A DNA stretch of 64,000 nucleotides from Patescibacteria group bacterium (GTDB lineage: Bacteria > Patescibacteriota > UBA1384 > XYA2-FULL-43-10 > 1-14-0-10-43-13). This document shows positions 1,227 to 52,245 of the stretch, piece by piece. The stretch covers positions 26,751 to 90,750 of the forward strand of contig JBAYVE010000004.1 of assembly GCA_041674765.1 (NCBI GenBank). Direction: 5' to 3'. The notes beneath the pieces are model-generated. The model had not been told where the DNA came from, did no database searches, and saw nothing but the letters and a program-made list of their open reading frames with translations. The first letter of the stretch is position 1. Each line of letters starts with the position of its first letter. The position numbers were made by a program, and so were the translations under genes.

Positions 1227-4070
1227 ATGTCTTTACTCGATAAAATCTATAATCCCAGCCGTAGGGTGATAAGCTCCCTTCAGAGCCAGGTTGCGAAAAT
1301 CAACGCCTTTGAAAGCGAACTTAGCAAATTATCAGATGAGGCTTTGAAAGCCAAGACCTTGGAATTCAAAGAGAAGCTCGCTGATTTAGGCCGGCAGAAT
1401 GAAATCATAGAGGAGATCACACCCGAAGTTTTTGCGGTCATGAGAGAAGCGATGAAGCGTGTTTGGGGAGAACGCCATTTTGATGTCCAGCTGATCGGTG
1501 GATTGGTTCTTCATCAGGGTAAGATCGCCGAGATGAAAACCGGTGAAGGCAAAACGATTGTGGCTACTCTGCCCTTGTATCTGAATGCTCTGACCGGTCA
1601 GGGAGTCCACCTTGTGACTGTGAATGATTATCTTTCCCGCCATCAGGGAGAAGGAATGGGGGAAGTATTTCATTTTTTGGGTCTTTCTACCGGTATTATC
1701 CAGAGTAATCAGGAAACTTATCGTTTCGTTAAAAAACATAATTACAAACATTATTCGGAAAGTGAAGGCCTAAACTTAGAGCCTTGTTCGCGTAAGGATG
1801 CTTATGCTTGTGATGTCACTTATGGTACAAACAACGAATTTGGTTTTGACTATCTGCGCGATAACATGGCGCCGAGCGTTGAACTCTGCTCTCAGCGGAC
1901 GCTTAATTTTGCTATCGTTGATGAAGTGGACTCAATCCTGATCGATGAGGCTAGAACTCCGTTGATTATCTCGGCTCCGGCAGAGGAATCAACTGGCATG
2001 TATCAACAGTTCGCCTCACTCGTGCCACGGTTGAAAGAGGGAGAGGGATATATCGTCGATGAGAAGGACAAGGCAGTTTCGCTGACAGATAAGGGAATCG
2101 CCGAGATGGAAAAAATGCTTCATATAGACAATATTTATGAAGCCGGTGGTATCGCGATGGTTCATCACCTGGAGCAAGCCCTGAAGGCGCATGGTTTATT
2201 CAAAAAGGACCGTGATTATGTCGTCAAGGAAGGGGAAATTATTATCGTTGATGAGTTTACCGGCCGTTTGATGGTTGGCAGACGTTATTCGGAGGGACTC
2301 CATCAGGCAATTGAGGCGAAGGAAAATGTTGAAGTAAAAAGTGAGTCGCAGACCTTGGCTACAATCTCCTTCCAAAATTTATTTCGCATGTACGGAAAAT
2401 TGGCTGGTATGACCGGAACTGCCGCAACGGAAGCAGAGGAATTCTACAAAATTTACAAACTCGATGTTGTGGAAATTCCAACAAATAAATCAGTTGCCCG
2501 CAAGGATTTTCCTGATCAGATTTATAAAACGGTCGAAGCTAAGCTCGATGCGATTGTCAAAGATGTCAAAGAGAGAACCGAGAAGGGTCAGCCGATTTTG
2601 ATTGGTACTGTTTCTGTCGAAAGAAATGAGTTGCTGTCGAAAAGCTTGAAGAGGGCTGGCATCAAGCACGAAGTTTTGAACGCGAAGCAGCATGACCGTG
2701 AAGCCAAAATTATTGCCAAGGCAGGCCTCAAGGGCGCGGTGACTGTGGCAACAAATATGGCCGGACGCGGAACCGATATCAAATTGGGCGAAGGTGTCCG
2801 GGAAGTTGGAGGATTGCATGTTCTTGGTACTGAACGTCACGAGGCACGCCGTATTGACAATCAGCTCCGTGGCCGTTCCGGAAGGCAGGGCGATCCAGGG
2901 TCTTCTCAATTCTTTGTTTCGATGGAAGATGATCTAATGAGAATTTTTGGCGGCGAGCGGCTGAAGAATCTAATGAGTTCGTTGGGTCTGCCTGACGACA
3001 TGCCAGTCCAGAATGCGATGATTTCACGCTCAATTGAATCAGCCCAGAGAAGAGTTGAGGGATATAATTTCGACATTCGAAAACATCTCGTTGAATATGA
3101 TGATGTGATGAATAAGCATCGCGAGGTCATTTACAGGAAACGAAGAAGAATACTGGAATTAGAGGTCAACAACCAACAATCAACAACCAGCAACCAATCA
3201 AATTCCAATATTCAAAATCCAAATGACTATGAGACCATTGGACAGTCAGAGCCGACTGACCTGAGAAGCGAGATTCTCGAAATCATTGATGATGAGATTG
3301 AAGCAATAATCAATTTGAATATTGAAAACCCCGATAAGGCCAAATCGGAACTGACTGTAATGCTTGGTTCCCCGGTAGAGCTTTTGGATATGGAAAAACT
3401 AAAGGCTCAGGCAATAAGCCTTTATGAAGCTCGAGAAGAAAAGTTTGGGCCGGAAGTGATGCGTCAGATCGAGAAAGCGGTGTATCTAAGGACGATTGAT
3501 ATGCTTTGGGTCGAGCATCTGACAACGATGGACGAACTTCGAACCGGTATTGGACTTCAGGGTTACGGCCAGCGTGATCCTCTTATCGAATATAAGCAGG
3601 AAGCTTACCGTTTATTCGAAGGTCTACTCCGAAGCATTGAAAGTTCTGTGGCTAAAACAATTTTTCGCGTAGAAGTTTCTGCGCAACCCCAGCCGAGACC
3701 CATAGAAGAGAAAAAGCTGGAATATACTCAGCCTGATATTAGTGAAGTAGGCGGATTTGAGAATGACCTGCCCGCAGTCGCTAAAGCCCAGCTTTTGCAG
3801 GCGGGAAAAGAAGATCTGGCAGTTGCTCAGAAGATGCTTGCTATTCAGGCAGAGAGCCAAAAGCAAAAGGTTAAAAACGATGAGCTTTTAAAAAAATCAT
3901 TCGGTAAAGGCAGCAGCGTATATGACAGAATGAAGGAATCGAGTGCCTCAGGGCCTGCCTCTCAGGTCAGAAATAAATTATCAAAAGTCGGCAGAAACGA
4001 TCCCTGCCCATGCGGAGCGACTAAGGCAGACGGACGCCCGGTAAAGTACAAACATTGTCACGGGAAATAA
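1227..4070 (+). CDS. secA: preprotein translocase ATPase SecA
   Basis: 947 aa with DEAD-like motor motifs and C-terminal zinc-binding tail CPCGATKADGRPVKYKHCHGK; contains a low-complexity N/Q/S insert. Confidence 0.97.
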   Translation: MSLLDKIYNPSRRVISSLQSQVAKINAFESELSKLSDEALKAKTLEFKEKLADLGRQNEIIEEITPEVFAVMREAMKRVWGERHFDVQLIGGLVLHQGKIAEMKTGEGKTIVATLPLYLNALTGQGVHLVTVNDYLSRHQGEGMGEVFHFLGLSTGIIQSNQETYRFVKKHNYKHYSESEGLNLEPCSRKDAYACDVTYGTNNEFGFDYLRDNMAPSVELCSQRTLNFAIVDEVDSILIDEARTPLIISAPAEESTGMYQQFASLVPRLKEGEGYIVDEKDKAVSLTDKGIAEMEKMLHIDNIYEAGGIAMVHHLEQALKAHGLFKKDRDYVVKEGEIIIVDEFTGRLMVGRRYSEGLHQAIEAKENVEVKSESQTLATISFQNLFRMYGKLAGMTGTAATEAEEFYKIYKLDVVEIPTNKSVARKDFPDQIYKTVEAKLDAIVKDVKERTEKGQPILIGTVSVERNELLSKSLKRAGIKHEVLNAKQHDREAKIIAKAGLKGAVTVATNMAGRGTDIKLGEGVREVGGLHVLGTERHEARRIDNQLRGRSGRQGDPGSSQFFVSMEDDLMRIFGGERLKNLMSSLGLPDDMPVQNAMISRSIESAQRRVEGYNFDIRKHLVEYDDVMNKHREVIYRKRRRILELEVNNQQSTTSNQSNSNIQNPNDYETIGQSEPTDLRSEILEIIDDEIEAIINLNIENPDKAKSELTVMLGSPVELLDMEKLKAQAISLYEAREEKFGPEVMRQIEKAVYLRTIDMLWVEHLTTMDELRTGIGLQGYGQRDPLIEYKQEAYRLFEGLLRSIESSVAKTIFRVEVSAQPQPRPIEEKKLEYTQPDISEVGGFENDLPAVAKAQLLQAGKEDLAVAQKMLAIQAESQKQKVKNDELLKKSFGKGSSVYDRMKESSASGPASQVRNKLSKVGRNDPCPCGATKADGRPVKYKHCHGK

Positions 4071-4172
4071 GTTCTGAATTTTGTGAAAATCAAGCCGAGT
4101 CCCTTTCGTAGCTTTAGCGAAGGGGGACGGTTCTGGTAAGAAATATAAGAAATGCAACGGGAAATAACATAT

Positions 4173-4267
4173 CTACCTCACCTAGCCTCTCCTAAACTAG
4201 GAGAGGGATTAAACAGGATCATTGCAATTATTTCCCCTCCTGGATCAGGAGGGGTTAGGGGAGGTAG
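4173..4267. mobile_element. MITE-like hairpin repeat block (left copy) with ctacctc...gaggtag termini
   Basis: ctacctcacctagcctctcctaaactaggagagggat + second hairpin cccctcctggatcaggagggg; 37-bp core identical to 4630-4666. Confidence 0.7.
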
Positions 4268-4653
4268 TAAAAATAGAATATATTTTCAATAATAAAGATA
4301 GTGCTGATCTCAGGCGCAATCTTCGGAAGAATATGCCTATTACAGAAGTGGTTATTTGGCAGAGAATCAGGGCGGGCCAATTGGGTGGCTATAAGTTCAA
4401 AAGACAATATAGCGCCGCTAATTTTATTTTGGATTTTTACTGCCCATTAAAGAGACTAGCGATCGAGCTTGACGGTGAAAGCCATTATTTGGGCAACCAA
4501 AAAGAATACGATAAAGACAGAACTAAATATCTGAATTCGCTAAATATAAAGGTTGTTCGATTTACCAATAAAGAAGTGATGGAGAATATTGAGGGCGTGA
4601 TTGAGAGGATACTATCAATTTTAAATGAACCTACCTCACCTAGCCTCTCCTAA
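4222..4653 (+). CDS. DUF559 (Vsr/endonuclease-fold) domain protein
   Basis: LRRNLRKNMPITEVVIWQRIRAGQLGGYKFKRQ...ILDFYCP..LAIELDGESH...VVRFTNKEV matches the DUF559 signature. The ATG at 4222 lies inside the left repeat block, so the true start is uncertain. Confidence 0.75.
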   Translation: MQLFPLLDQEGLGEVVKIEYIFNNKDSADLRRNLRKNMPITEVVIWQRIRAGQLGGYKFKRQYSAANFILDFYCPLKRLAIELDGESHYLGNQKEYDKDRTKYLNSLNIKVVRFTNKEVMENIEGVIERILSILNEPTSPSLS

Positions 4654-4773
4654 ACTAGGAGAGGGATCAGAACGGGATCATCATGGCTACTTTCCCTTAT
4701 TTGATTAGGAGTGATTAGTAGGGCCATTGCAGCTACTTTTCCTTCTTCGATTAGGAGGGATTAAGGGAGGTAG
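4630..4773. mobile_element. MITE-like hairpin repeat block (right copy), direct repeat of 4173-4267 with a longer middle
   Basis: Same 37-bp core, shared ggatcat/attgca middle and terminal ...gggaggtag; overlaps the 3' end of the DUF559 ORF. Confidence 0.7.
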
Positions 4774-4788
4774 AAATCAGAAGCAATC

Positions 4789-5544
4789 TTATTTATTCTT
4801 ATCGGGACAAAGATCCCAAATTAAACGGAACCAAGTTCTATAGGTTTCTGCGAGTTCCGGATTAATCATGACAAAGATTGTGCCGTCCTCGCCGAAATTG
4901 CCAATGCCAACACTAGTAAAGGTAACGACATAATCTCCGAAAACATCGGTGACCCCTGGGGCTTCGTAGCCTTTGGGTAAAATTTTATATTCACCTCCGA
5001 CATTTTTGAGCGCCTCTGGCAGCTCTTTTTTGACTCTGGGATCGTAAAGAGTGTAATATTTCTTACCCTTTCTGGTCATCGCATCCTTATAGTCATCCAA
5101 ATACTGTTTCTCGACCCAGGGGGTAAACCAGAGGCCCTTGGCACCAAGAAAATAGGTATCCTCCGCCACATTGGCCATATCTCGAAGGTAATTTTTGTAG
5201 CCCTCTTTGCCCTTGTAAATAAAGGCGGCTTCTTTTTGGGGCTCAGTTTCATACATTTTTTTTAATTCAGGCAAAATATTATTCAACTGCTCCGACTGTT
5301 TCTGAAGCATCTCCTGCAATTTATCAGGACTGACCGCTCGAAATTTATTCTCTTCTTTCTTGAAAATACGAAAAACAAGGCCCTTTTCGATAAGGCGATT
5401 GAGCGTATCGTAAACATTGCGCCTGTTAACATCGGCTTTGAGTGAAATTTCGGCTACGCCGATCTCATTGGAAGAGAGTAGCGCCTCATAAATTTTTGCT
5501 TCATTGGGCGAAAGCCCTAAGTTACTAAAGATCTCTGAATACAT
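4789..5544 (-). CDS. TrmB-family transcriptional regulator
   Basis: N-terminal winged HTH (LGLSPNEAKIYEALL..GVAEIS) plus C-terminal TrmB-like sugar-sensing domain length. Confidence 0.6.
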   Translation of the reverse strand: MYSEIFSNLGLSPNEAKIYEALLSSNEIGVAEISLKADVNRRNVYDTLNRLIEKGLVFRIFKKEENKFRAVSPDKLQEMLQKQSEQLNNILPELKKMYETEPQKEAAFIYKGKEGYKNYLRDMANVAEDTYFLGAKGLWFTPWVEKQYLDDYKDAMTRKGKKYYTLYDPRVKKELPEALKNVGGEYKILPKGYEAPGVTDVFGDYVVTFTSVGIGNFGEDGTIFVMINPELAETYRTWFRLIWDLCPDKNK

Positions 5545-6100
5545 TTTTTCCTTTTCTTCCCCTCATTTTTAAGGAGGGGCTAGGGGTGGTTTATTTATTA
5601 ATTTTCAATTTTTAATTTAAATTTTTCTAATAACTATCAACGGATCAAATCTCTTCTAGCGTGTCATCCTCGGGACCGGCGGTGTTCTCTAGAGTGGTGC
5701 CTCATTCGAGTCTGCCTTCGATTCACACTCAGGCCCTGAGCCTGTCGAATGGGAGCCTGAGGGCTCTTCCCTCAGAGTCGAAGACCGGGGACCCAATTCC
5801 TTTTTTGCGGTGTCATCCTGAGGAACCGAAGGATCTCTGAACTTGTTTCAGGTGGCATTGACTTCGCATTCGCGAGGGATTCTTCGCCTCCTCAGAATGA
5901 CAGACTAATATGGTGTATAACTGATAGATTCTTCGCCTCCGAGAACATTGGCTCAGAATGACAGTTGTTATGGTGTATGTAATCACCATATGGTGATATT
6001 GACCACTCATTAACTTTATTATATACTTGCTCATCGTTCTTGTCAAGGCTTGCTTTGGTGAGAATGTTTTAAATATCAATCGAGCTCAAATTATGCTTTC
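5545..6100. repeat. Cluster of dispersed MITE-like repeats. Modules present: gtcatcctcgggacc; cctcagagtcgaagaccgggg; ctcagaatgacag; gattcttcgcctcc
   Basis: Modules recur at 20512-20740, 27545-27684, 30047-30225, 36294-36700, 40865-41000 and 45685-45960; no convincing ORF. Confidence 0.8.
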
Positions 6101-6150
6101 AAGCCTGGTTGGAGCTAGGACCTACACAACCTAGAGCGGGAGGGAAAGGT

Positions 6151-6789
6151 ATGCCAAGAATAGAGAGTGCAATTATCATCACTGATGATATGCGTAATCT
6201 GTTGATGCATTGTTGCCGATTGAGTGGGCTGACTCAGAAAGAGCTTGCTCGGAGGGCAGGAGTGGAACAGTCATGGGCTAGCAGAGCCTTAAATGGGAGT
6301 CGGAAACGTGTCGAGAGAGCGCTTATTCAAAGTACGGTCAAGGTAGTGGCGTCTGCCCTTGAAGAAAAACAGGAGATAGATTGCGAGCAAGCAGCAGCGC
6401 ACCTAAGAAGCGCTTTCGGCGTCGGCGGCGAGCTGGTTACAAATACAGCCATGTTGTTCCGGACGATAGCCATCACCGGGCTTGTAAATTGCGGTCTCGG
6501 AATGACCGATGAGCAGGCCGTGGTATTCTGCAACCTGCCCTGTCTATTCACGCGTTTAGAAGCAGTGAAAACGATTCTGCGCGGCTTGGTTGCTATTGCC
6601 AATGCGTCAAATGGCAAGGCAGCGGAAGCTGTCGGCCAAATGATTATTGTGGGGATTGTCAATTGCGGTCTTGGGATCACGGAAGACCAGGCCAAGAAAT
6701 TCGTCTCACAACCGAATCTGGGCGAGAGAATTGACAGTGTATTGAGTGCAATGAGTGCCATCGCGGCCGCATTCGAAACTGGCAATTGA
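6151..6789 (+). CDS. HTH (XRE-like) domain protein with two CGLG repeats, paralog A
   Basis: RBS gggagggaaaggt before the ATG; LTQKELARRAGVEQSWASRAL helix-turn-helix; internal repeats GLVNCGLGMTDEQAVVF and GIVNCGLGITEDQAKKF; GC about 52% versus about 41% in flanking DNA. Confidence 0.7.
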   Translation: MPRIESAIIITDDMRNLLMHCCRLSGLTQKELARRAGVEQSWASRALNGSRKRVERALIQSTVKVVASALEEKQEIDCEQAAAHLRSAFGVGGELVTNTAMLFRTIAITGLVNCGLGMTDEQAVVFCNLPCLFTRLEAVKTILRGLVAIANASNGKAAEAVGQMIIVGIVNCGLGITEDQAKKFVSQPNLGERIDSVLSAMSAIAAAFETGN

Positions 6790-6815
6790 GAAGAAGCGAA
6801 AGGAAGGGGGCAAAT

Positions 6816-7463
6816 ATGCCGCAGGTGGAAGTTACCCTACTAACGGGAGAGATGACAGATCTTCTCGTTAAATGTGTGAAAACGAGCAAGCTCAACCAGA
6901 AGGAATTGGCCGAAAAGGCGGGAGTACAACAATCATGGCTAAGCCGTCTTTTGAGGGGGGATCGCCATCGTTTAGAGGTAGAGTCGATCAATAAAGTTGT
7001 CGGAGCATTGGCTAAAACACTTGACACGATGGGCGCTGCTGCAAGCAATCAAGCAACATATCTCAGAGAAGTCTTCTTTGGCGATGTACTGAATGCCGGG
7101 CCAATGAGTGCTGTCAAAAAGATGGCTGTGATTGGGCTGATGAAATGCGGCCTCGGCATCGACGCAGATAGGGCGGGGGAAATGTTTGATAGTGATCCCT
7201 GTCTGATGACGAAAGTGCAGGGAGCCATTCAAGTGCTTAAGGCGATTGAGGCAATCATCAATGCAATCCCTGACAGTCTCAAGGACGCGGCAGTTGGGGA
7301 GATGATCACATCAGGGATCGAAGATTGTGGCTTTGGAACTCCTCATGATGTTGCCCGTGAATTCTGTAAGCCTGACGCGAAGGAAAAAATACAGAGGGCA
7401 GTGAGTGCCTTGAGCGGAGTGAGCGTCGTCATCGAGATCGCCCGAGGCGAGGATCGAAGTTAA
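6816..7463 (+). CDS. HTH (XRE-like) domain protein with two CGLG repeats, paralog B
   Basis: RBS aggaaggggg; LNQKELAEKAGVQQSWLSRLL HTH; repeats GLMKCGLGIDADRAGEMF and GIEDCGFGTPHDVAREF; same architecture as 6151-6789. Confidence 0.7.
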   Translation: MPQVEVTLLTGEMTDLLVKCVKTSKLNQKELAEKAGVQQSWLSRLLRGDRHRLEVESINKVVGALAKTLDTMGAAASNQATYLREVFFGDVLNAGPMSAVKKMAVIGLMKCGLGIDADRAGEMFDSDPCLMTKVQGAIQVLKAIEAIINAIPDSLKDAAVGEMITSGIEDCGFGTPHDVAREFCKPDAKEKIQRAVSALSGVSVVIEIARGEDRS

Positions 7464-7492
7464 TAACTAGTGACGCGCTAGCGAGAGTGGAC

Positions 7493-7540
7493 AAAAACCG
7501 ACCGTCCGGCGTGCAAGGATGCACAAAGGGCGGTTTTTTT
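7493..7540 (+). terminator. Putative intrinsic terminator after the HTH pair
   Basis: aaaaaccgaccg...gtgcaaggatgcac...gggcggttttttt compound hairpin with T-run. Confidence 0.5.
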
Positions 7541-7601
7541 AATTATTAATTTTAGTTATAATTTAATTGCATTTAATATTAGTCAACCTGAAAAGGAATC
7601 T

Positions 7602-8120
7602 ATGGAAAATAAAAGTGCTATACATTTTTTGATGACAGGTGGGACTATCGATTCTTACTTTGATCCGATAGAAGGCACAACGATACCCACTGAACACTCG
7701 TATATCCCAAAATTCATTCCCTTATTAAAACTTTATGAGAATTGCATTTTTACTGAAGTTTGCATGAAGGATAGCCGTGATTTGCTGGAAGATGACCGAA
7801 AGAGGCTGCTCAAAGCTATTAAAGAAAGTGATTCTCAAAGAGTAATTATTACTCATGGGAGTTATACTGTAAGCGATACCGCAAGGTTTATTCAGGAAAA
7901 TTTCAGAGAGAAAAATAAGACGATAATATTTGTTTGTGCGATGGTGCCGCTGGATGGTTTTTCACCGACAGACGCAGGGTTTAACTTAGGGTATGCGGTT
8001 GCTAAGTCTCAGGATTTGGAACCAGGTATATACGTTTGTATGAATGGCAGAGTATTTGACGCCGAAGAAGTTACAAAGATCCTTTCTGAAGGCAGATTTG
8101 GGTCAATCTATACTAAATAG
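7602..8120 (+). CDS. asparaginase/glutaminase family protein, N-terminal domain only
   Basis: LMTGGTIDS (TGGTI motif) and VIITHGSYT (THGTDT-like); only 172 aa, so it lacks the C-terminal domain. Confidence 0.5.
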   Translation: MENKSAIHFLMTGGTIDSYFDPIEGTTIPTEHSYIPKFIPLLKLYENCIFTEVCMKDSRDLLEDDRKRLLKAIKESDSQRVIITHGSYTVSDTARFIQENFREKNKTIIFVCAMVPLDGFSPTDAGFNLGYAVAKSQDLEPGIYVCMNGRVFDAEEVTKILSEGRFGSIYTK

Positions 8121-8194
8121 CTCGATTCAACCACTTGGGCAGGCGGAGGCTGCTGGCGGTTTTTTAAACCTCGAAATTTGGTTATAATAACTAT

Positions 8195-8947
8195 ATGGCA
8201 GAGAAGATAAAATATGGTTTTGGGGTGAGGCAATTCGGCAAGACCCCGAGGACTTTCGAGCAGGAAGTTGAGTTTGCAAAGATAAACGGTTTTGATTTTC
8301 TGCAAGTTTTTTATTTCTCTAAAAAAGGATTGGAGATGATCCCCCCAGGCAAAGGAATCGAGCGCATTCGTAAAGCCAATTTCCCGGTAATCATTCATGC
8401 GGGATTTGAACCAAGGGAGTTTCAAAAACAAATACCAAAGGTTGTAAATATCATTGATGAGCTTGGTGGCGGGGAGGTGATAATTCATCCCTGGAATCCC
8501 ACAGGTCGGCCTGAGAGCTCTTTCTCCGTCTTGATTCAGGAAATGGCAGTGGCTCGGGATATTTTCGAGGACAAGGGAATCAAGGTCTATGTGGAAAATA
8601 ATAGCGAAAAGGATTCGATTTTAATAGAACCTGAAGAAATCAAAGAGTTCTTCGGCCAATTTCCAGAGATGGAATTATTGCTAGATATAGGTCATATGGT
8701 CAGCTTCGAGAAGACAAAAGCGATCGCAAAAGTGAAATTACCGGCTCTGCTACACATGTCTGATCGTGATTTGAATGGTCCGCCAAATCATCTGCCTATC
8801 GGCAAGGGTAATATTGATTTTAAGAGGGTGATTGGGGAGATACTGCCTGATTTTCAGGGTAAGATTATTTTAGAGGTGACGGAGAGCGATGAGGCAATTA
8901 TTAATTCAAAAAAGATTATTGAATATATGTTAAGTAATAATTATTAA
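8195..8947 (+). CDS. sugar-phosphate isomerase/epimerase (xylose isomerase-like TIM barrel)
   Basis: VIIHAGFEP, VYVEN, LLDIGHM, HMSDRD..H.PIGKGNIDF pattern of AP_endonuc_2/XylA-like barrels. Confidence 0.55.
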   Translation: MAEKIKYGFGVRQFGKTPRTFEQEVEFAKINGFDFLQVFYFSKKGLEMIPPGKGIERIRKANFPVIIHAGFEPREFQKQIPKVVNIIDELGGGEVIIHPWNPTGRPESSFSVLIQEMAVARDIFEDKGIKVYVENNSEKDSILIEPEEIKEFFGQFPEMELLLDIGHMVSFEKTKAIAKVKLPALLHMSDRDLNGPPNHLPIGKGNIDFKRVIGEILPDFQGKIILEVTESDEAIINSKKIIEYMLSNNY

Positions 8948-8949
8948 TA

Positions 8950-9060
8950 GTTGGTCATCTCGACATCCGCCTCTGGCGAGACGAGAGATCTTCATTTGAG
9001 TGTTTGATTCTGGATTCCCGCCTACGCGGGAATGACAGCAGAAGAGGCGGTACATCAATG
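8950..9060. repeat. MITE-like repeat (ggattcccgcctacgcgggaatgac hairpin plus companion module)
   Basis: One mismatch from the 24-bp hairpins at 52013-52036 and 52214-52237. Confidence 0.7.
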
Positions 9061-9106
9061 ATAGATTGCTTCGCAAAGACACTCGCAATGACAGGTAAAA
9101 ATATTT

Positions 9107-20511: not shown

Positions 20512-20740
20512 TTCAGCTCCAAATGTCATCCTCGGGACCAATGGTGATCTTGGAAATGGTACCCGGGGATCCAATTCCTTATTTATATTAGAGGACAGGG
20601 GGCTCTTTCTCTTCGAGTCTGAGCGACGAGGTCGCTAGGCCTCAGAGTCGAAGACCGATGCCTGAATAATTCTATAAACCCCCTCTAGCTCCCCCTTGAG
20701 AAGGGGGAGAAAATAGTGTTTTGGTAAGATTCAATTGGAT
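20512..20740. repeat. MITE-like repeat cluster. Modules present: gtcatcctcgggacc; gaggacagggggctctttctcttcgagtctgag; cctcagagtcgaagaccg; ctcccccttgagaagggggag hairpin
   Basis: Modules shared with 5545-6100, 36430-36480 and 45790-45830. Confidence 0.8.
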
Positions 20741-52004: not shown

Positions 52005-52245
52005 TCTGTATTGTCATTCCCGCGGAGGCGGGAATCTATACAATGTAAATTCCTTTTATGAAACTATATTATGTTTATATATTAGCGAGTGAAAAGAACG
52101 GAACTTTGTATATTGGTGTTACTTCTGATTCAAAGAAAAGGGTTTGGCAACACAAGAATAAATTGGTAGTGGGAAGATTTATATTTTAATATTTAAGGCA
52201 AAACAACTTCCTCGATTCCCGCCTCCGCGGGAATGACGGACAAGG
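52005..52245. mobile_element. Truncated GIY-YIG nuclease mini-element bracketed by perfect 24-bp inverted hairpin repeats
   Basis: gtcattcccgcggaggcgggaatc at 52013-52036 and its exact reverse complement at 52214-52237; internal ORF 52058-52189. Confidence 0.75.
52058..52189 (+). pseudogene. GIY-YIG nuclease N-terminal fragment (43 codons)
   Basis: MKLYYVYILASEKNGTLYIGVTSDSKKRVWQHKNK matches the GIY-YIG signature; ORF stops well short of a full domain. Confidence 0.7.

Follow-up and report, generated by a model that had tools for sequence, protein, structure and literature searches.

In a 64,000-nucleotide (nt) stretch of the genome of a Patescibacteria group bacterium (GenBank assembly GCA_041674765.1, contig JBAYVE010000004.1, positions 26,751 to 90,750; hereafter the window, with coordinates counted from its first letter), a gene for a DUF559-family nuclease lies downstream of secA between two blocks of palindromic repeats. 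These repeats belong to a known and widespread class and are not lineage-specific miniature inverted-repeat transposable elements (MITEs); judged by their sequence blocks, their arms are members of the BoxC/PIT/TM intrastrand triplex motif class, paired as inverted dimers. The repeat-flanked layout is the norm for the DUF559 subfamily in many phyla, including ycjD of Escherichia coli, and because the layout of the window recurs in the family, the locus is a typical member of a general architecture rather than an oddity. Both the repeat class and the protein family were already known, and what appears to be new is their pairing, which as a systematic and oriented association appears undescribed in the searched literature. 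Known since 1992, the BoxC/PIT/triplex-motif repeats abound in hundreds of genomes, where they mark hypervariable loci, and a survey of 2015 found no function, mobility gene or mechanism for them (PMC4666352). To stand-alone members of the very large DUF559 family, YcjD among them, the searched literature assigns no function. A tight, oriented association that crosses phyla gives the repeats and the DUF559 proteins each a candidate partner, and the question that it raises can be tested in E. coli K-12.

The repeat blocks of the window are built around a 37-nt core, CTACCTCACCTAGCCTCTCCTAAACTAGGAGAGGGAT, which occurs as two exact copies in direct orientation at 4173-4209 and 4631-4667; none of 100 shuffled sequences contained any match, and none is expected by chance. 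An earlier note on this DNA had recognised both copies, although its position for the second (4630-4666) was off by one. The larger blocks with CTACCTC...GAGGTAG inverted termini that it described are also borne out: in the left block (4173-4267), two 40-nt arms with 78% complementarity and 15 nt between them make up an imperfect inverted repeat, and as single-stranded DNA the block is predicted to form a three-way junction (dG -23.8 kcal/mol, z = -5.9) in which a CTACCTC/GAGGTAG outer stem closes two 9-bp hairpins. Viewed as a triplex-motif dimer, which as a whole is assigned to neither strand, the left block has a block structure matching the class II purine motif (PMC4666352). Its L arm (4173-4209) carries the motif on the minus strand, with a mirror block at 4176-4182 and a hairpin at 4186-4206; a spacer follows at 4210-4230; and the R arm (4231-4267) consists of a hairpin at 4234-4254, then the loop TTA, the mirror purine block GGGGAGG at 4258-4264 and finally TAG. 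Block by block, the R arm reads CCCCTCC, TGGATCA, GGAGGGG, TTA and GGGGAGG: set apart by the loops, a pyrimidine block comes first, then the purine block complementary to it and last a purine block in mirror order. The L arms have this structure on the opposite strand with one mismatched triad, and G·T pairs between L and R arms, as read from the letters, are tolerated on the plus (mRNA) strand only. The right block (4631-4776, likewise assigned to neither strand) begins with an L arm (4631-4667) identical to that on the left. Beyond a spacer it continues with two R arms in a decayed state (4691-4730 and 4737-4776); their identity to the left-block arm is 63% and 80%, and C-to-T changes have worn down their pyrimidine blocks.

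Two solo motifs complete the set in the window. One is of R type on the plus strand at 5559-5589 (CCCCTC..GAGGGG CTA GGGGTGG), just upstream of a divergent TrmB-like gene; the other, at 20679-20709, is of L type as read on the plus strand, its motif lying on the minus strand (CCCCCTC TAG CTCCCCCTT GAG AAGGGGGAG), and it stands between convergent genes and shows that the repeat family is dispersed within the Patescibacteria genome. Full three-block motifs number five in the 64 kb, at 4186, 4234, 4644, 5559 and 20689, and they occupy three intergenic sites (4173-4776, 5559 and 20679), against about one such hairpin expected per shuffled window. Neither block is bordered by a target-site duplication (the flanks are ..catat and taaaa.. 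on the left, ..tgaac and aaatc.. on the right), and no transposase was seen at the locus. An Rfam scan of 3900-6200 gave a single sub-threshold miRNA match, by which a known RNA family was ruled out, and a scan for terminator and promoter consensus sequences called nothing at the arms. An integron attC site was rejected as well, since the termini are CTACCTC/GAGGTAG and not R''/R' core sites (GTTRRRY) and no integrase is found among the neighbours. The assembly artefact that the earlier note had allowed for as a refutation is unlikely, because the secA and DUF559 proteins of the window are on record from ENA, JGI and NCBI and the architecture recurs in dozens of unrelated assemblies. By way of the protein entry P0001 no independent assembly was found on record; its sequence is identical except in the translation of the start codon.

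Membership in a widespread class follows from the spread of the arms themselves. A degenerate arm pattern had matches in metagenome contigs, at least 119 of them, that came from sediment, groundwater, soil and human-gut samples, and it is these many unrelated matches that set the arms apart from lineage-specific MITEs. For the arrangement of arms, 107 non-redundant metagenome arms were classified with regular expressions and hairpin scans, an nhmmer arm model having been dropped for the pairing statistics as too strict for diverged partner arms. Versions that lack the gene exist: tail-to-tail R-spacer-L dimers (…GGGGTAG-spacer-CTACC…; spacer 2-35 nt, mode 10) account for 37 of the 107, L-loop-R units like the left block of the window for 11, and solo arms for the remaining 59. 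Arm structure was computed as hairpin and three-way-junction folding, and the triplex assignment is made on the sequence blocks. The window arms do not match the TM(ECO) pattern, CCCTCNCCC-N3-6-GGGNGAGGG-N3-GGGNGAGGG, and are best placed as members of the triplex-motif class outside the TM(ECO) family proper, as a 7-nt-block variant with a GTAG tag. The BoxC, PIT and TM(ECO) repeats were reportedly treated in earlier work by Bergler in 1992 and by Hoyne and Maher in 2000. The survey of triplex motifs by Holder and colleagues in 2015 counted 23 copies in E. coli K-12 and 3610 copies in 262 proteobacterial genomes, and found them to be always intergenic, several of them as inverted pairs, and situated at hypervariable loci; it never met transposases or integrases and called the mechanism of the hypervariability unclear (PMC4666352).

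Between the two blocks lies an open reading frame (ORF) on the plus strand at 4222-4656, with a domain at 4303-4623 that matches PF04480 (E = 6.6e-32; score 110.1 bits, the cut-off being 20.6; aligned over profile positions 4-108 of 109), so that the DUF559 gene proposed for this interval by the earlier note is upheld; it is the only DUF559 gene in the window. The protein keeps all 18 family-invariant residues, including D71, E82, D84 and H88, and matches the Neisseria gonorrhoeae DUF559 structure 3HRL (E = 2e-22), to which a predicted model with a pLDDT (predicted local distance difference test) score of 81 superposes with a TM-score of 0.87 and a root-mean-square deviation of 1.5 Å. The next-best structure is the catalytic domain of I-Bth0305I (3R3P; Foldseek probability 1.00, TM-score 0.75). 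The N- and C-terminal extensions encoded by the repeats are disordered in the model, with pLDDT below 50. Profile match and model together identify the ORF as a genuine gene for a predicted Vsr-fold PD-(D/E)XK nuclease of the DUF559/YcjD family. With 75.9 bits against the YcjD equivalog profile (NCBIfam PRK09767), below the cut-off of 218, the product would be a relative of YcjD and not a YcjD equivalog. The description of the gene as Vsr-like holds for the fold; it does not extend to the profile, as no Pfam match to Vsr was found and DUF559 and MTES_1575 are the only Pfam families listed, nor to a methyltransferase linkage, there being no cytosine-5 methyltransferase among the nearby genes (secA, TrmB-like, helix-turn-helix (HTH) and asparaginase-like genes). 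A recognised defence system was rejected on the result of PADLOC, which gave weak nuclease-domain matches only. Relatives of the protein have a patchy distribution that takes in many phyla, with identity flat at 40-55%, and many annotated homologues extend at the N or C terminus into repeat-encoded peptides, for example PSLDKEGVGGV and TPP..LGGE.

Repeats and gene are interlocked at both ends of the reading frame. The ORF opens at TTG 4222, within the spacer of the left block, and its sole in-frame ATG is at 4333 (Met38), inside the conserved domain that begins at residue 28. Contrary to what had been noted earlier, the left block holds no in-frame ATG, and the ATG upstream of that block, at 4152, belongs to a different frame. 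ATA 4273 aligns with Met1 of several homologues and stands 7 nt after GGAGGT (4260-4265) in the R arm, which suggests either that an ancestral ATG has mutated or that a weak start is in use; with ATA in place of the ancestral ATG, expression of the gene may now be weak, or the gene may be in decay. At the other end, the stop codon TAA (4654-4656) sits in the loop of the right L arm. The upstream R arm thus contributes a putative Shine-Dalgarno (SD) sequence and the downstream L arm the predicted stop codon, so that one repeat unit belongs to each side of the gene with a period of 458 bp, in the layout [L-x-R]-DUF559-[L-x-R'...]. The notion of a cassette-like, repeat-bracketed unit is in this respect well founded: gene, ribosome-binding site (RBS) in the upstream arm and stop in the downstream arm form an arrangement that recurs across phyla.

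The association of gene and repeats was measured on a set of 80 DUF559 loci, all in named genomes and drawn from many phyla. Within 200 nt of DUF559 the density of pyrimidine/purine hairpins is 5.53 per kb and beyond that distance it is 0.23 per kb, and when the comparison is confined to non-coding DNA the densities are 6.78 and 0.74, a 9-fold enrichment within the same loci. A hairpin lies within 120 nt of 76 of the 80 DUF559 genes and of 11 of the 106 other ORFs of these loci (Fisher p = 1e-34). Full three-block motifs, present in 52 of the 80 loci, are enriched 28-fold (3.16 per kb near the gene and 0.115 far from it), and they are oriented with respect to it: upstream there are 34 R against 19 L motifs, downstream 30 L against 12 R. 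Flanking direct repeats of at least 30 bits, up to 159 nt long and 91-100% identical, were found at 29 of 77 loci, and flanking inverted repeats of the same minimum score at 27 of 77, with 0 of 65 displaced controls in either case. A second, independent set of 40 more distant DUF559 loci had the same enrichment, with 6.2 against 0.72 hairpins per kb. Approached from the side of the repeats, DUF559 was present at 4 of 119 arm loci among the matches listed, each time directly adjacent. At one locus (L128), a second repeat unit supplies the SD sequence of the next gene. The SD-to-start spacing ranges from 0 to 53 nt across the family and is not conserved, for which reason the arms were rejected as a general SD sequence for DUF559. 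Carriage by phages was also rejected, as only 40 DUF559 loci, many of them at contig ends, were found among 2.9 million viral contigs. As a separate observation, in a metagenome-assembled genome of a WOR-3 bacterium (L198) the DUF559 gene lies within a tandem array of 38-nt triplex-motif units (2620-2960 and 3350-3460), with about nine unit copies upstream and four downstream.

E. coli served as a check, with K-12 ycjD as the family's model gene. In K-12, where the gene order is sapF-ycjD-fabI, the ycjD ORF ends inside a C-rich/G-rich arm, BoxC arms come after it, and a second ycjD 3'-end remnant lies about 45 nt downstream (L210, NC_000913.3 1351000-1351900). The annotated GTG start of K-12 ycjD overlaps a 17-bp perfect hairpin at the latter's 3' end; the allele that carries the eef operon has this hairpin too. 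The region by fabI (envM), next to ycjD, is reportedly the one in which BoxC was first described. The gene is present in 3378 of 5426 complete E. coli genomes. In E. coli ETEC6 (L212), an IS1 inside ycjD has left two pseudogene fragments. The sapF-fabI site holds ycjD in some lineages and the eefRABCD operon in other phylogroups, and loss of eef has been inferred two or three times (PMC12817139). The eef-positive alleles were considered as an empty site and rejected, since neither junction has a triplex motif; E. coli therefore gives no clean empty site. Across the E. coli collection, a genome has between 2 and 34 BoxC/TM copies. Among 59 genomes sampled at even spacing, with statistics uncorrected for phylogeny, the median number of BoxC copies is 20 in genomes with ycjD (range 11-30, n = 37) and 4.5 in those without it (range 2-20, n = 22; Mann-Whitney p = 7e-8), with at least 11 copies in all 37 of the former and at most 7 in 13 of the 22 latter. 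This link between ycjD and BoxC copy number is suggestive and is confounded by phylogeny.

With the anatomy, the family assignments and the association in hand, we infer how the nuclease may act on the repeats and by what route the gene may be gained and lost. Our preference, which stands at somewhat better than even, is that nuclease and repeats form a co-propagating cassette of a selfish type, with homing by repeat homology. A small, probably dimeric nuclease would recognise the repeat, its likeliest target being the tail-to-tail dimer (...GGGGTAG-N~10-CTACCCC...) or the hairpin or triplex extruded from it. For the repair of a break or nick at the dimer, a copy with the gene placed between two units would serve as template, and the repair would copy the gene together with one unit into a solo repeat. 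Solo repeats would be where the gene is gained, through break-induced copying or through recombination, and the gene would be deleted again when the flanking units recombine. In the window, the L arm would have served as the recombination joint by which the cassette entered a repeat cluster that was older and already resident, because the two L arms are identical at 37 of 37 positions beside spacers and R arms that differ between the two sides, with the right-hand R arms eroded. Three considerations favour the homing reading, namely that the gene sits where tail-to-tail dimers have their spacer of about 10 nt, as a homing endonuclease gene sits in its palindromic target, that the nearest characterised fold relative after 3HRL is the homing endonuclease I-Bth0305I (PMC3239194), and that the identity of the L arms fits an incoming cassette joined to an older cluster.

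Several observations weigh against such a cassette. The window gene has lost its ancestral start codon; about 4% of arms adjoin DUF559 among the matches listed; no orthologous filled/empty pair for the cassette was found among the loci compared; and the search for repeats within the genome covered the 64-kb window, with its five motifs at three sites. Additionally, the gene occupies one shared site in three Hymenobacter species and ycjD is single-copy in E. coli (median 1, maximum 2), both of which resemble vertical inheritance and not active mobility; O157 without ycjD still holds about 14 BoxC copies, and the triplex motif is absent at both junctions of the eef-positive allele. Finally, a Caulobacter protein with a DUF559 domain (VsrA) has been proposed as a mismatch-repair enzyme (PMC12907096). 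A broader proposal, that DUF559/YcjD nucleases are the trans-acting partner of the BoxC/PIT/triplex-motif repeats at large and a PD-(D/E)XK analogue of the RAYT-REPIN system, we put forward tentatively, as a possibility less probable than its opposite. If it is true, the nuclease would cut the extruded hairpin or triplex, or the palindromic dimer, and so spread or maintain the repeats. It would also copy its own gene between repeats, and the hypervariability seen at triplex-motif loci, in E. coli as in other bacteria, would be a consequence of its action.

As an alternative, the gene could be an ordinary host gene, for example for Vsr-like repair or for defence, whose nuclease would not act on the hairpins, these being cis signals for, say, RBS sequestration, mRNA 3'-end protection or insulation. 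We regard this as fairly unlikely. It would account for a 3' hairpin stem that resembles AGGAGG and a 5' stem that resembles an anti-SD sequence, for the SD sequences found in the R arm and, at L128, in the unit ahead of the next gene, for the tolerance of G·T pairs on the mRNA strand alone and for the repair function proposed for Caulobacter VsrA (PMC12907096). However, no cytosine methyltransferase is nearby, the repeats mostly occur without the gene, the distance from SD to start varies over 0-53 nt, the consensus scan called no terminator at the arms, and PIT elements had no promoter, terminator or expression effect in earlier work (PMC4666352 introduction); the long direct repeats on both sides would also be left unexplained. 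A RAYT-like domesticated partner, that is, a single-copy and vertically inherited host nuclease that multiplies or maintains the repeats, with an immobile gene beside which its substrates are deposited, is in our estimation unlikely. The single copy of ycjD in E. coli, the common site in three Hymenobacter species, the small share of arms adjoining the gene (about 4% among the matches listed) and the larger number of repeats in ycjD-positive E. coli all agree with it, as does the occurrence of arms as singlets and as head-head or tail-tail dimers in the manner of GTAG-tagged repetitive extragenic palindromic (REP) sequences (PMC3733652). It fits poorly with a family that is patchy across phyla at a flat 40-55% identity and with the replacement of another operon by ycjD in several E. 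coli lineages (PMC12817139); the long, near-identical direct repeats and the second ycjD 3'-end remnant suggest gain and loss of the gene, and the chemistry is that of a PD-(D/E)XK nuclease and not of a HUH transposase.

The earlier note had pictured the MITE-like direct repeats around DUF559 as a composite mobile cassette, or else repeated insertion into the secA terminator region. Spelled out, two MITEs in direct orientation would form a composite transposon with DUF559 as cargo, mobilised in trans by the transposase of an insertion sequence (IS), or MITEs would have entered the secA terminator more than once. The CTACCTC...GAGGTAG termini, the 40-nt inverted repeat at 78% and the existence of dispersed copies of the arms are what such a model would predict, and yet we now hold it to be very improbable: neither block is accompanied by a target-site duplication, no transposase was seen at the locus or in the published gene contexts (PMC4666352), the arms are conserved across phyla as those of IS-derived MITEs are not, the enclosed cargo is always DUF559, and the change in secA is independent of the repeats. 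Mere coincidence, by which triplex motifs and a horizontally acquired gene would gather in a permissive, variable intergenic region, could draw on the position of the locus in a 5-kb islet alongside other repeat families and on the hypervariability of triplex-motif loci (PMC4666352). It is effectively refuted, and we give it next to no weight, in view of the proximity counts (76 of 80 genes against 11 of 106, p = 1e-34), the 9-fold enrichment over other non-coding DNA of the same loci and the orientation of the motifs relative to the gene.

Upstream of the cassette, secA itself has been altered. The gene (1227-4070, plus strand; 947 aa; on record as Patescibacteria SecA) ends in a long zinc-finger tail, ...CPCGATKADGRPVKYKHCHGK and stop, of the kind that we term Form B. 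The imperfect duplication of the tail that had been reported is real: 4029-4070 and 4126-4167 share 25 of 42 nt without gaps, which none of the 7858 other 42-mers in the window reaches, and the peptides, each followed by a stop, read DGRPVKYKHCHGK and DGSGKKYKKCNGK. What had been taken for a 65-bp hairpin insert between two complete copies is instead part of a 115-nt insertion (4013-4127, plus strand) into the SEC-C coding segment, which brings the replacement tail ATKADGRPVKYKHCHGK, a stop codon and, at about 4094-4131, a hairpin with a weak fold (z = -1.9), and has CGG at both bounds. Downstream of it the last 12 codons of the original gene survive as a displaced tail (4123-4167, plus strand) that reads GDGSGKKYKKCNGK and stop, is of Form A with His replaced by Asn, and is +1 out of frame. 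The organism is placed within Patescibacteria close to Berkelbacteria, and SecA tails of relatives are of two kinds, the canonical Form A, ...CPCGSGKKYKKC[CH]GK and stop, and the longer Form B of the window protein, ...CPCGAxKxDGRPxKYKHC[HC]GK and stop. One Form B relative (L203, P0123) has the same insertion with an intact remnant, GDGSGKKYKKCCGK and stop, that is 84% identical to the window remnant over 51 nt, and no DUF559 gene or repeats were found in the neighbourhood of its secA tail; its collinear congener (L209, 84% nucleotide identity) has a plain Form A tail and represents the empty site.

Alignment of the window (4013-4167) and L203 (6254-6431) with the empty L209 (5240-5290) gives a clean insertion between CCATG/CGG and GGGGGA/CGGTTCTGG, 141 nt long in L203 and 115 nt in the window. 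One clade of a SecA tree computed with the tail left out is fixed for Form B, which in the other clade turns up sporadically, every sporadic case being sister to Form A sequences, and the remnant has been lost at three other Form B loci. The duplication is accordingly best described as an insertion that brought a substitute tail and stop codon, and recombination between related secA genes is the probable means of its spread. The insertion is an older event than the DUF559 cassette and independent of it; L203 has both insertion and remnant without DUF559 or repeats. Comparison of the secA 3' region among relatives, which the earlier note had called for, thus points to a separate event that is not tied to the repeats, and the supposition that the duplication belongs to the same cassette is not supported by the contrast of L203 with the empty L209. 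Three other explanations were rejected: a simple tandem duplication, as the sequences after the two stop codons are unrelated; ribosomal bypass, as the take-off and landing codons differ (GGA and GGT); and a small intron, as 115 nt is too short for a self-splicing one. The case shows that the zinc-finger tail of an essential gene can be swapped by an insertion of 115-141 nt that carries its own replacement.

The DUF559 cassette forms the left edge of a lineage-specific islet of about 5 kb (4168-9106, assigned to neither strand) between secA and a Metallophos gene, which is absent in relatives; in six neighbourhoods of these, Metallophos or iPGM directly follows secA. Besides DUF559 the islet encodes a TrmB-like regulator (4789-5544, minus strand), two paralogous HTH proteins, an asparaginase-like protein and an AP_endonuc_2 protein. 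The HTH genes stand in tandem (6109-6789 and 6786-7463) with overlapping stop and start, and their products are 36% identical over 214 aa; Pfam recognises an N-terminal HTH in the first only. Another family of dispersed repeats, about 135 nt long and conserved at its ends (TGTCATCCTCGGGACC and CCTCAGAGTCGAAGACCG), has copies at 5661-5797 and 20524-20656, both of which adjoin a solo triplex motif, and a related short motif, GTCATYCNNNG, occurs 10 times in the window against 3.1 expected. Additionally, a hairpin TCCCGC-N4-GCGGGA followed by ATGAC is present in three copies (9016-9031, 52018-52033 and 52217-52232), and in metagenome contigs that are unrelated, L020 and L021 among them, similar sequences adjoin triplex arms.

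Among known systems, the insertion in secA is most readily compared with e14 and phage 21 in the icd gene of E. coli, where the inserted element replaces that gene's 3' end. The secA insert likewise supplies a substitute 3' end and stop with the original 3' end just downstream; in contrast to e14 and phage 21, it is only 115-141 nt long and carries no integrase or other gene, and the substitute tail differs in length from the original, with a Cys-to-Cys spacing of 14 instead of 8. For the repeats, BoxC, PIT and TM(ECO) are the obvious counterparts, with which the window arms share a C-rich block, a G-rich complement and, past a 3-nt loop (TTA or CTA), another G-rich block in mirror order, as well as intergenic, dispersed placement, often as two motifs in inverted configuration at hypervariable loci. 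They differ from TM(ECO) in having blocks of 7 nt (CCCCTCC or CCTCTCC) where TM(ECO) has the 9-nt block CCCTCNCCC, in the GTAG tag after the third block, and in their host, since TM(ECO) has been reported in Proteobacteria only and the window comes from Patescibacteria; and they bracket a nuclease gene, whereas the searched literature reports no gene associated with BoxC, PIT or TM(ECO). Another close parallel is K-12 ycjD, which also encodes a stand-alone DUF559 protein (about 117 aa in E. coli), receives its stop codon from an arm, is followed by BoxC arms with remnants of repeated insertion and is polymorphic in its presence among strains. Upstream of ycjD, however, there is another hairpin and not a triplex-motif dimer, and the window protein scores below the YcjD equivalog cut-off, as given above.

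Two systems with a dedicated nuclease or transposase frame the proposed mechanism. The Vsr-like EDxHD homing endonucleases (I-Bth0305I, PDB 3R3P, PMC3239194) share the catalytic fold of the DUF559 protein (TM-score 0.75); as in homing endonuclease genes, the gene would lie in the middle of a palindromic site, of which gene-less versions are found elsewhere, and its family is patchily distributed. Unlike I-Bth0305I and its family, the DUF559 locus has no intron or intein and the protein no extra N-terminal DNA-binding region, and the presumed target is a dispersed repeat and not a conserved gene, with homing itself a proposal here. GTAG-tagged REPs and the RAYT-REPIN system resemble the window locus in other respects, in that short palindromes with GTAG occur as singlets and inverted doublets, and a single small gene of nuclease type stands amid repeats most of which are far away (PMC3116915, PMC3733652). 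The window protein is a Vsr-fold PD-(D/E)XK nuclease where RAYT is a HUH Y1 transposase; a third (triplex) block parts the GTAG of the window arms from the stem, which distinguishes them from GTAG-tagged REPs as defined (PMC3733652); and the window-type repeat is conserved across phyla, whereas REP sequences are species-specific.

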